64,000 bases of DNA from Hydrolagus affinis (GCA_012026655.1 JAAILG010001434.1:1-64000), one strand, 5' to 3'. Shown: positions 43,101-59,217, counted from the first letter of the stretch. Program-made: numbers and translations. The notes: generated by a model not told the origin, from the letters alone.

Positions 43101-46100
43101 TGTCGCTGTATGGAAATCAAGATTGTCTGCTTTGTTCGTTGACAAATACACAGGCAATCTCTATGAAGTGCTTCAAGATGGTTTGAGGTGATAAGGTGCT
43201 GAATCAGATGCAAGGATTAATGTTATGATATTTATAGGGTCATCAATTTTAAAGCAAATGGCTTAATAGTACAAATGTTCGTATACACATTCAAAAACCT
43301 GGCTTCTTTTGGGGCCATTTAAATTTTTCCTCCAAATCTTGCATGCAGTGCTGCATCAGTCAGGAACTCAATGAGATGCAGGGTCCAACATACTTAGAAC
43401 TTTCAGTCTGCCAGTTTAGACAAAGATTAAACTGGCTTTACCTCAGGTTAATTTCAGATACTTGCAGGGGATGTACACAACTGGTACCATAGAGGAATCT
43501 GTGTGAGAAATGCATTCCCCAAGTGACAGAAACACTTATGAAATGAGCACATACTACCATTTACTTTGCTGGGTCAATGCAGCTCTTGTACTCCCTGCCT
43601 ATAATGAGGACGCTTTTTGGAAAATGTGCCATGAATATGTAGTTGGTATCTGCTGCCATTTTTGCATCACTCTTTCGATCACAATTATATCTACACATAA
43701 AGATAGATTTTGAGTTGTATTCCATTCAGCCAAATGAATTGTGTGCTATTTAAGGTTCCTCTATCTTTTGATATTGGTGGTGGGTCTTCTGCCTAGATGG
43801 ACCATGTTTGCTTCTTGCCGTTTCTCTTACAAGGCTGTTAAGCCATCCCTTGAACAACTAAATAATAAAGAGGACTTGCAGATTTATTAAAGATACATTG
43901 AGCCTGAACCTCGCCTTAGCTGGTAAGACCATTTTGCTTTAGTATTTGCATGGAACAAGTTTAAGATTTTTCCACAAATCTGCACCATCTGACACGATGA
44001 GGCAAACATAGATAAATTCTGATCCTCTCACGTTACAGGCATAATGTTGGCATCCATATCTGTGAAACCAATATTTCAAATCTCCTTTATTTGGAACTCG
44101 GCCCAGAAGTGCTCTAAATATGTTGAAATCACTTGTAAATGTAACATAATCTTTACACTTGATTTGTGCCTTTCACATCAGGAGGATGTCTCCAAGCGCT
44201 TCTCAGGAAATACAGCTAAGTGTAATGACAATGTATTACGAGCTTTACAAGCATGAGACCTGTGTTTGAATTGAGGCAGGTCTGGGCGAAACCTTGGGTA
44301 AGTTTCCTTTCTCTAAACGCCGAATAATAATCCCTCCTCCCCCCAAAAATAATTAAATTGGTCATTTCAATCTACGACTATTTGTGGGACACTGCTATGT
44401 GCAATTGGCTGCCGCATTTCACCTACAAATATACAGTCAATTCACTTTAGTATATTAATATATTCTGTGAAGCGCTTTGAGATGTCTAGAAGACGTGAAA
44501 AGTGCTACATCAAATGCAAGGATTATTATTATTTTGTAGCTTTGCCTCGCTTTGAACATGGTGCCATTCTGACTGCAGTTTGCCAGAAATAACGCTCAAG
44601 AGCACTTCCTTTCACACTTGGGTCTATTCAATGCATTTAATTCACTTTAGTTCTAATGATAAAATTGTGTAGTGTTTCGGAAAAATACTTTCATTTAAAA
44701 ATCATGATCAAACAATCATGCTGGTTCTTCAAAAAAAATGGTTTTGCATCAATCTAAAAGTTCCTGAGCTCGAGGCATTTGTGCAATAATTAAATGAATG
44801 TGAAATCAATTCTCTTGTATTTTAACATTTACGAATGGTTCGGTTCCTTATGCGCTTGTTTCTCTCAGTCAGTCATCGCTGCTGTGAGTCTCCAGCTCGG
44901 AGAGCATGTGTGGAACAATGGATTACTTTACAGCTGTGCTAACAATCTGCTAGATTAAAGTGGCGGCTCAGTGTGGAGGGCTTTATGAAAAACAGTAACA
45001 TTCTCCCCGTGCCACCCGCCAGCCCCCTCTCCCCTCCCTCCATCACTCTGGCCAATGATCGGTGTTACTTTCCCAGGGACTGTGATGATGAGCTGTGCAA
45101 CCCAACTGAAGCATGATGAAATGTTTCAGGTGTTCAGTGTGCCACTCGAAACATCCAGCTCTGAAGAGACTTCAAAGCTGTGATCATAAGACTACAAAGT
45201 GAGTAGCTACCATATGGCAATGGAATTCACAGAGCACAAAATGTCGAGGATTGCTCATGATTCCAGAATAAACAAATGCTAATTAACATAGCAGTATGCT
45301 CTGCTTTTAGCAGCGACCGTTCTGTAAAACTGAAAGATAATATACGTGTAGTAATATAAAGCGATATACGATACCTTCATCGCAGCTTTCTTCATCACTG
45401 CCATCCAGACAGTCAGCCTCGCCGTCACAGTGCCACCTGATAGGAATACAGTGGCCGTGCTTACACTGGAACTGATCTTCTTTACATGTAATTACGCAGT
45501 CCTTCTGTTAATAGAAATCACGTACAAGATTCAATTTAATTATGTATGTCACTCATGGCATGTGGATAATTAAAAAAGGAGTCACAAATTACAAAGGTGC
45601 GTTGTTAATCATCTGTGGTGATGGGTTTCCTCTTGTGACAGACACCGGGCTAACCGCAAAAAAACATTTGCAAACTCTGATCCAAGTCTTCCTTTGTTTC
45701 CTCTCTAGGAATGTCGCCAAGTACCACTAGCCAGTGCCATTAGATAAGGATAAAAATAAAACATGACATAACAGAAATAGACAAAGCGTTTCACAAAACT
45801 ATGCAAAATACACTTCATCCCATATGCAGAGTTACAGTGAATCAAAAGGCACTTTGGCTAAACTAGTCTGTGCCGGTATTTATATTACATATAAGCCACC
45901 ATTCCTCCTTTTCCCCTTCACAAGCGGGTCAACTGAAAATCAAAATTATACATTTTCATATTGTGCATTGCAACACTGCCACTGAACAAATGTAATTTTG
46001 TAGTTGTTGAGCAAAATACAAAATAGAGATCATCTGAATTAGCTTTGGCACTTTATAAACTAAAGTCTATAAAAACAAACACAATTGTAAATACAAATAA

Positions 46101-59217: not shown

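Follow-up and report, generated by a model that had tools for sequence, protein, structure and literature searches.

Very probably, the 64,000 nucleotides of Hydrolagus affinis DNA analysed here (GCA_012026655.1 JAAILG010001434.1:1-64000; the window in what follows) contain the final 24 coding exons of an LRP1-family gene of chimaera type, one that falls with LRP1B in trees and that keeps cluster IV of its LDLa repeats in the order of LRP1, the 12-repeat cluster IV of bony-vertebrate LRP1B being a likely derivative, formed by loss of repeat 5 and tandem duplication of repeats 7 and 8. The mechanism, frame-preserving exon loss and duplication, is an ordinary one.

The gene is read entirely from the minus strand. 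The model, which is guided by the best homologues and joins exons on the basis of splice signals and annotated orthologues, runs from repeat IV-5 to a stop codon at 4001, past which the window extends for 4 kb. It covers repeats 5-11 of cluster IV only; repeats 1-4 lie beyond position 64000 and are known only from orthologues. Repeat IV-5 (LRP1 CR25; phase 1-1; absent from bony-vertebrate LRP1B) is at 59092..59217 and IV-6 (CR26; phase 1-1; homologue of bony LRP1B repeat 5) at 50443..50559. The exon for IV-7 (CR27; phase 1-0; homologue of bony repeats 6 and 8), at 48853..48959, ends ahead of the sixth cysteine; the next exon, at 45375..45504, supplies the last cysteine of IV-7 together with IV-8 (CR28; phase 0-1; homologue of bony repeats 7 and 9). 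Repeats IV-9, IV-10 and IV-11, all in phase 1-1 exons, follow at 42858..42980, 42634..42756 and 39468..39602. Two EGF-like exons, labelled from their cysteine pattern and homologues, span 36719..38001 (38001-37867 and 36841-36719). The last YWTD β-propeller takes up five exons at 27273..32486 (32486-32245, 30279-30101, 28277-28171, 27712-27596 and 27449-27273), and the EGF-repeat/stalk region seven at 6959..27041 (27041-26901, 22397-22233, 17455-17294, 16783-16609, about 13543-13439, 7460-7347 and 7035-6959). The transmembrane exon (5389..5479), a tail exon with the first NPxY motif (5031..5178), the 889-base last intron (4142..5030) and the last coding exon (4001..4141), with the second NPxY, YxxL and dileucine motifs, an LRP1B-type C-terminus and the stop codon, complete the gene. 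LDLa repeats, EGF repeats, the last YWTD propeller, one membrane-spanning segment and a tail bearing two NPxY motifs together make up the core layout of the LDL-receptor family.

The gene model is identical to Callorhinchus milii XP_042192141.1 at 1035 of 1080 aligned residues (96%). A search among proteins of up to 2000 residues returned one match, a catshark protein 85% identical on one exon, and a PDB sequence search with the IV-5 exon returned only generic LDLa matches and small LRP1 fragments. At one place the splice signals depart from expectation: the acceptor at 13545-13544 (minus strand), positioned by the Callorhinchus protein, reads GG, not AG, and use of the next in-frame AG, 15 bases further on, would cost five residues including an EGF cysteine; the GG may be a sequencing error, an allele or a real splice shift. 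The first AATAAA past the stop codon is at 2186 (minus strand, 4000-2186), which suggests a 3' UTR of ~1.8 kb. The introns (e.g., 58384-58915, 40600-41070, 33950-34650, 17930-18870 and 41800-42170) contain many decayed, mutually similar interspersed repeats, of very high read depth and putatively LINE/SINE-like. Four sequencing runs aligned to 39400-59300 consist mostly of repeat-derived reads, with one DNA-like contig set whose listed pieces are ~98% alike and collinear; there is no exon-exon joint among the 15 joints listed, beyond which stand 15420 more.

Six-frame scanning of the window brings out seven LDLa repeats, every one of them on the minus strand. Four of them, spanning 45375..59217, had been noticed in the original prediction; they are present in the order that it gave, with AG/GT borders at all four exons, and both ends of the span coincide exactly with outer splice sites. 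The four-exon observation is real and above chance. In a scan with Pfam Ldl_recept_a, 7/7 exons pass the 24.1-bit cut-off (30.8-59.3 bits). The claim that the introns hide no further LDLa exon also stands: in a scan of six introns and the upstream segment 59218-64000 with seven LDLa profiles in six frames, the best score is 6.5 bits, against maxima of up to 6.8 bits in 20 shuffles and 51.7-69.8 bits for the true LDLa exons on the generic profile. The same six introns and 59218-64000 contain no exon-sized DNA copy or repeat remnant. The human sequences quoted in the prediction agree with the fetched human LRP1 and LRP1B.

Orthology of the gene to LRP1B, which the prediction had assumed, is supported by three trees. 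Over the region after cluster IV, the window and its cartilaginous-fish orthologues join bony LRP1B with support of 100 (32 rows, 828 columns; quick IQ-TREE with a mixture model); over the region before cluster IV, the cartilaginous-fish orthologues do so, also with support of 100 (31 rows excluding the window, 3268 columns; FastTree). In an outgroup-rooted tree (22 rows, 837 columns; LRP2 and two invertebrate proteins as the outgroup, with a warning from the tool of long outgroup branches meeting), the window's group and bony LRP1B form a clade at 100, and the cyclostomes lie outside LRP1 plus LRP1B at 81. Forcing the window's group to join LRP1 is rejected (p-AU 1.5e-7). A separate LRP1 is present in cartilaginous fishes that are relatives of the window species (Callorhinchus, Carcharodon and Mobula). 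The names in databases are at odds: the Callorhinchus protein (XP_042192141.1 / UniRef100_A0A4W3IBD4) is 'LRP1' in RefSeq and 'LRP1B' in UniProt, and the shark, ray and chimaera orthologues are labelled 'LRP1-like' or 'LRP1' in RefSeq. Comparison of the sequences indicates that the shark and ray 'LRP1-like' annotations probably denote LRP1B. (Of the 43 members of the shark/ray protein cluster, 15 were fetched.) In the tree of the region after cluster IV, bony LRP1B has a stem of 0.45, long beside the 0.24 of cartilaginous LRP1B; before cluster IV, under a different model, the two are similar at 0.11 and 0.13. The C-terminal part of bony LRP1B may have sped up along with the rearrangement. Cartilaginous-fish LRP1B lies on contigs (31-406 Mb in chromosome-scale records) longer than those of the true LRP1 of the same fishes (5-85 Mb).

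The alternative that survives best, unlikely as we judge it, is that the gene is a third paralogue: a sister duplicate arisen on the LRP1B stem and kept only in cartilaginous fishes, where the 12-repeat LRP1B was lost or has escaped annotation. The RefSeq naming is compatible with it, the C-terminal search comes close to a tie (1067 and 1040 bits to bony LRP1B, 1040 bits to LRP1), and trees cannot separate an orthologue from reciprocal loss. However, it requires an extra duplication followed by two reciprocal losses, whereas the LRP1B half of the tree mirrors the LRP1 half, with the cartilaginous proteins sister to the bony ones in both. Moreover, when the 12-repeat region of the coelacanth serves as the query (against proteins of 2516-8007 residues only), no cartilaginous-fish protein is among the best 120 of 1457 matches, a list that extends down into LRP1 and LRP2.

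With the gene taken as the LRP1B orthologue, the order of its repeats can be set beside that of its relatives. The repeats of the window map 5-6-7-8-9-10-11, which is the LRP1 order (the CR21-CR31 series), and to that extent the one-to-one match with LRP1 that had been asserted for cluster IV is borne out. In the window's group, made up of the window and 24 models that represent 8 named species (after removal of a brittle-star row assigned to it in error), IV-5 is present in 24/25 rows, and the full 1-11 order in 19 of the 24 orthologue models. The 12 LDLa repeats of cluster IV that are a trait of mammalian LRP1B are seen neither in the window nor elsewhere in its group, for which the maximum is 11 (0/25 rows with 12). 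The models in the database are redundant isoforms, not independent samples, and 30 unassigned proteins are excluded from these repeat-order counts. Because 11 repeats are also the rule in cyclostomes (the full 11 in 34/35 models) and in LRP1 (the full order in 68/94 models), and occur in most LRP2 models, a jellyfish protein and a hemichordate protein, the 11-repeat cluster is ancestral. Bony LRP1B has 12 repeats in 77/94 models, in the order 1-2-3-4-6-7-8-7-8-9-10-11, and in 0/94 models a repeat resembling IV-5 stands between IV-4 and IV-6. The sample takes in reedfish, sturgeon, gar, teleosts, coelacanth, lungfish, amphibians, reptiles, birds, echidna and human. The original prediction had called this order mammalian; it is indeed derived, but it is not confined to mammals, being already in place in reedfish, gar, coelacanth and lungfish. 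Since it is found in every bony lineage sampled, the change maps to the osteichthyan stem.

Which bony repeat descends from which ancestral one is a matter for profiles, pairwise scores to human LRP1 alone being ambiguous for bony repeats 7 and 9. The mapping uses the 77 bony models with 12 detected repeats (the 17/94 with fewer are left out) and profiles that exclude bichir LRP1, in which 10 repeats are detected. With cartilaginous-fish LRP1B profiles, bony repeat 6 and bony repeat 8 both go to IV-7 and bony repeat 5 to IV-6, each in 77/77 models, and bony repeat 9 goes to IV-8 in 76/77. The mapping of bony repeat 7 is weak: it goes to IV-8 in 61/77 models and elsewhere in 14-19/77, varying with the profile set. 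With LRP1 plus cyclostome profiles, bony repeat 8 finds its best match in IV-11 in 41/77 models; its assignment therefore depends on the nearer reference. The per-repeat phylogeny that had been suggested as a check (89 rows, 39 columns) unites IV-7 with bony 6 and bony 8 at 98/98, bony 6 and 8 being joined to each other at 100/95. IV-8 groups with bony 7 and bony 9 at 98/68, bony 7 lying outside IV-8 plus bony 9 and not pairing with bony 9; IV-6 groups with bony 5 at 89/78; IV-5 is without a bony partner. Repeat order, profiles and repeat tree thus uphold what the prediction had proposed, one repeat lost, two duplicated and the ancestral state kept at this locus.

The same end state might have been reached by another path, either through duplication of a larger block that was then pruned, or with part of IV-5 surviving as a mosaic in bony repeat 5 or 9; we regard this as improbable. 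A mosaic draws some plausibility from bony repeat 9, which has the longer C2-C3 loop of IV-5, is 56% identical to LRP1 IV-5 vs 58% to IV-8, and in the lungfish scores 51.2 with IV-5 vs 49.8 with IV-8 (in one profile set); the repeat tree does not reject bony 9 = IV-5 (p 0.085). Compared with cartilaginous-fish LRP1B, however, repeat 9 is 63% identical to IV-8 and 52% to IV-5, and it is sister to the IV-8 of these fishes, the window's included, at 100/91. As for bony repeat 5, it goes with IV-6 at 10 columns, all 3 indel columns among them, and with IV-5 at 3, the IV-5-like columns being scattered and IV-6 matches occurring at both ends. A single-crossover IV-5/IV-6 hybrid as the source of bony repeat 5 is unsupported.

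Less probable still is the simplest reading of the repeat count, that insertion of a single repeat into the LRP1 cluster gave that of bony LRP1B, bony repeats 5 and 6 being equal to IV-5 and IV-6. It calls for one event instead of two, it agrees with the net gain of one repeat as given in the available parts of PMC1563464 and PMC8469001, and the equation of bony 5 with IV-5, taken alone, is not rejected by the repeat tree (p-AU 0.065). The equation of bony 6 with IV-6, by contrast, is rejected (p-AU 0.0004), and with each of the three profile sets 77/77 models have bony 5 matching IV-6 and bony 6 matching IV-7; the bony models that skip repeats (see below) also place an exon border ahead of the sixth cysteine of repeat 6. 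That the 12-repeat order is the older one, and that gene conversion from LRP1 returned the cartilaginous-fish gene to 11 repeats, is very improbable indeed: IV-6 is 93% identical between cartilaginous-fish LRP1B and LRP1, but IV-5 is just 75% identical to that of LRP1, 11 repeats are what cyclostomes, most LRP2 models, the jellyfish and the hemichordate have, and the grouping of the window's IV-8 with bony repeat 9 and of its IV-9 with bony repeat 10 (99/98), not with LRP1, argues against conversion.

The reading of one repeat lost and two duplicated also suits the phases of the exons. The exon for IV-5 is symmetric (1-1) and could therefore be lost in frame; those for IV-7 (1-0) and IV-8 (0-1) keep the frame only jointly and could therefore be duplicated only as a pair. 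In the LDL-receptor family generally, LDLa modules are gained and lost as entire exons, with the reading frame preserved. On the osteichthyan stem, the IV-5 exon would have been lost and the IV-7 plus IV-8 exon pair duplicated in tandem, in either order, and bony repeats 7 and 8, as the inner copies, would afterwards have diverged most. Identity to the ancestral type is 51-52% for the inner copies and 57-63% for the outer ones. Repeats 7 and 8 are skipped in four bony models (anole, donkey and two of Labeo), where the join falls ahead of the sixth cysteine in repeat 6; a beluga model carries an insertion at the corresponding border after repeat 8. Both fit the presence of IV-7-type exon ends in bony LRP1B. 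The models that skip 7 and 8 restore the pre-duplication run 6-7-8; they may represent a real isoform or an annotation artefact.

The second hallmark of LRP1B, a 33-residue insert between the NPxY motifs of the tail, is absent from the window model and from 15/15 orthologue models that include the tail. A search of the last intron with the tail insert of bony LRP1B gives no match (best E 0.49). In mouse LRP1B, exon 90 is alternatively spliced, as stated in the accessible part of PMC3119793; given such splicing of the tail-insert exon, a diverged exon in the last intron could escape detection. The tail inserts of tetrapod and ray-finned-fish LRP1B look unlike by eye and may be of separate origin; the coelacanth, ptarmigan and eel LRP1B models shown are without the insert. 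At the furin-site position of LRP1, which falls in the first propeller exon at about 32270-32290, the window reads K-R-K-R, whereas the LRP1 rows shown are mostly R-x-K/R-R. This position is variable among the shark and ray orthologues, and Mobula is without a clear site; cartilaginous-fish LRP1B may be poorly cleaved.

Changes in the make-up of cluster IV bear on the binding of ligands. According to the available part of PMC8239462, RAP binds best to doublets across LRP1 CR23-29, both members of a strong RAP-binding doublet contain the conserved Trp, and in docking D999 and D1001 meet the RAP lysine; Fig. S1 of that paper may bear on the scoring of pockets. With W994 located in human LRP1, D999 and D1001 come three and five positions past the fourth cysteine. 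A complete pocket is defined here as the Trp together with acids at +1, +3 and +5, the +1 acid being part of the score on general structural knowledge. In this sense, 7 of 11 repeats (1 and 4-9) have a complete pocket in 10/10 LRP1 proteins (bichir LRP1 is left out of the table), 3/3 cyclostome proteins and 6/6 cartilaginous-fish LRP1B proteins, and 5 of the 7 repeats in the window do. For bony LRP1B the figure is 2 of 12, namely repeats 4 and 10, in 12/12 species; of the 77 bony models, 70 have two such repeats and 7 have one. Permitting Phe or Tyr in place of Trp raises the numbers to 8 for the ancestral type vs 4-5 for the bony one, none of the latter adjacent in the bony protein. The drop has no counterpart in cluster II (7, 6 and 6 of 8) or cluster III (about 3 of 10 each), in a table that leaves out Narcine and lungfish LRP1B. 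The Trp is kept in both members of bony repeats 4-5 and 9-10. In cluster III of bony LRP1B, the +3 acid is lost in CR15 and one is present in CR16; cyclostomes are alike in this, and LRP1 and cartilaginous LRP1B are unlike.

The protein of the window is predicted to act as an LRP1-like multiligand endocytic receptor, its cluster IV presenting complete Trp/acidic lysine-binding pockets in an unbroken run of six repeats, IV-4 to IV-9. In bony LRP1B the two complete pockets are not adjacent, and its cluster IV would be expected to bind ligands of this kind less strongly or with altered specificity. Binding is not lost, since cluster IV of human LRP1B reportedly binds RAP, uPA, tPA, PAI-1 and others (PMC8469001, available part). 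Slow internalisation is a mammalian LRP1B trait for which the same part of that source gives human values. A more far-reaching interpretation, which we put forward tentatively and think rather less probable than its opposite, is that LRP1B was functionally rebuilt on the bony stem: a complete repeat was lost, two degenerate ones were gained, four more lost pocket residues, no adjacent complete pair was left and the tail insert was added. Cartilaginous-fish LRP1B would then be a second LRP1, a high-avidity fast scavenger, and, if so, a living stand-in for the state that preceded LRP1B as a slow competitor of LRP1.

LRP1B is among the genes most often altered in cancer and has been studied mostly by means of cluster IV minireceptors (PMC8469001, as far as available). 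The corrected map shifts which human LRP1B repeat equals which LRP1 repeat, and results for LRP1 CR25-CR28 are therefore not transferable to LRP1B by position; it also dates both hallmarks of LRP1B, the 12-repeat cluster and the tail insert, after the split from the cartilaginous fishes, and the loss of pockets amounts to a residue-level prediction about cluster IV binding. The available parts of PMC1563464 and PMC8469001 describe LRP1B as differing from LRP1 by one additional cluster IV repeat and the 33-residue tail insert, without finer mapping; that of PMC10339998 places the LRP1/LRP1B duplication with the jawed vertebrates and does not treat repeat order; and in that of PMC9605692 no LRP1B passage was found. 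A literature search that took in few subscription papers, and whose scope did not extend to the original LRP1B papers and supplements, yielded no published account of the cluster IV rearrangement. Which repeat corresponds to which, when the change took place, how the phases constrain it and how pockets were lost all appear to be new to the literature searched; the gene itself is already in databases, misnamed.

Among known systems, the closest is the Callorhinchus milii protein XP_042192141.1, which has the repeat order of the window and is likewise without the tail insert, while the window has GG at the acceptor that this protein positions. Bony LRP1B (human NP_061027.2 and its relatives) is sister to the window's group in all three trees and has in common with it the stalk, the C-terminal motifs and the loss of a pocket residue in cluster II repeat CR4; it differs in its 12 repeats (4-6-7-8-7-8-9), in having two complete pockets instead of seven, and in the tail insert of many of its models. 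LRP1 (human EAW96991.1; cartilaginous-fish XP_042200196.1) matches the 11-repeat cluster IV one to one, with the same seven pockets and also no tail insert, but it is a separate gene in the same animals, with a different tail end and the canonical R-x-K/R-R in place of K-R-K-R. Loss and duplication of LDLa exons elsewhere in the LDL-receptor family are alike in moving whole, frame-keeping exons; here, instead, a split exon forces a two-exon unit, and a net gain of one repeat hides a loss of one and a gain of two.
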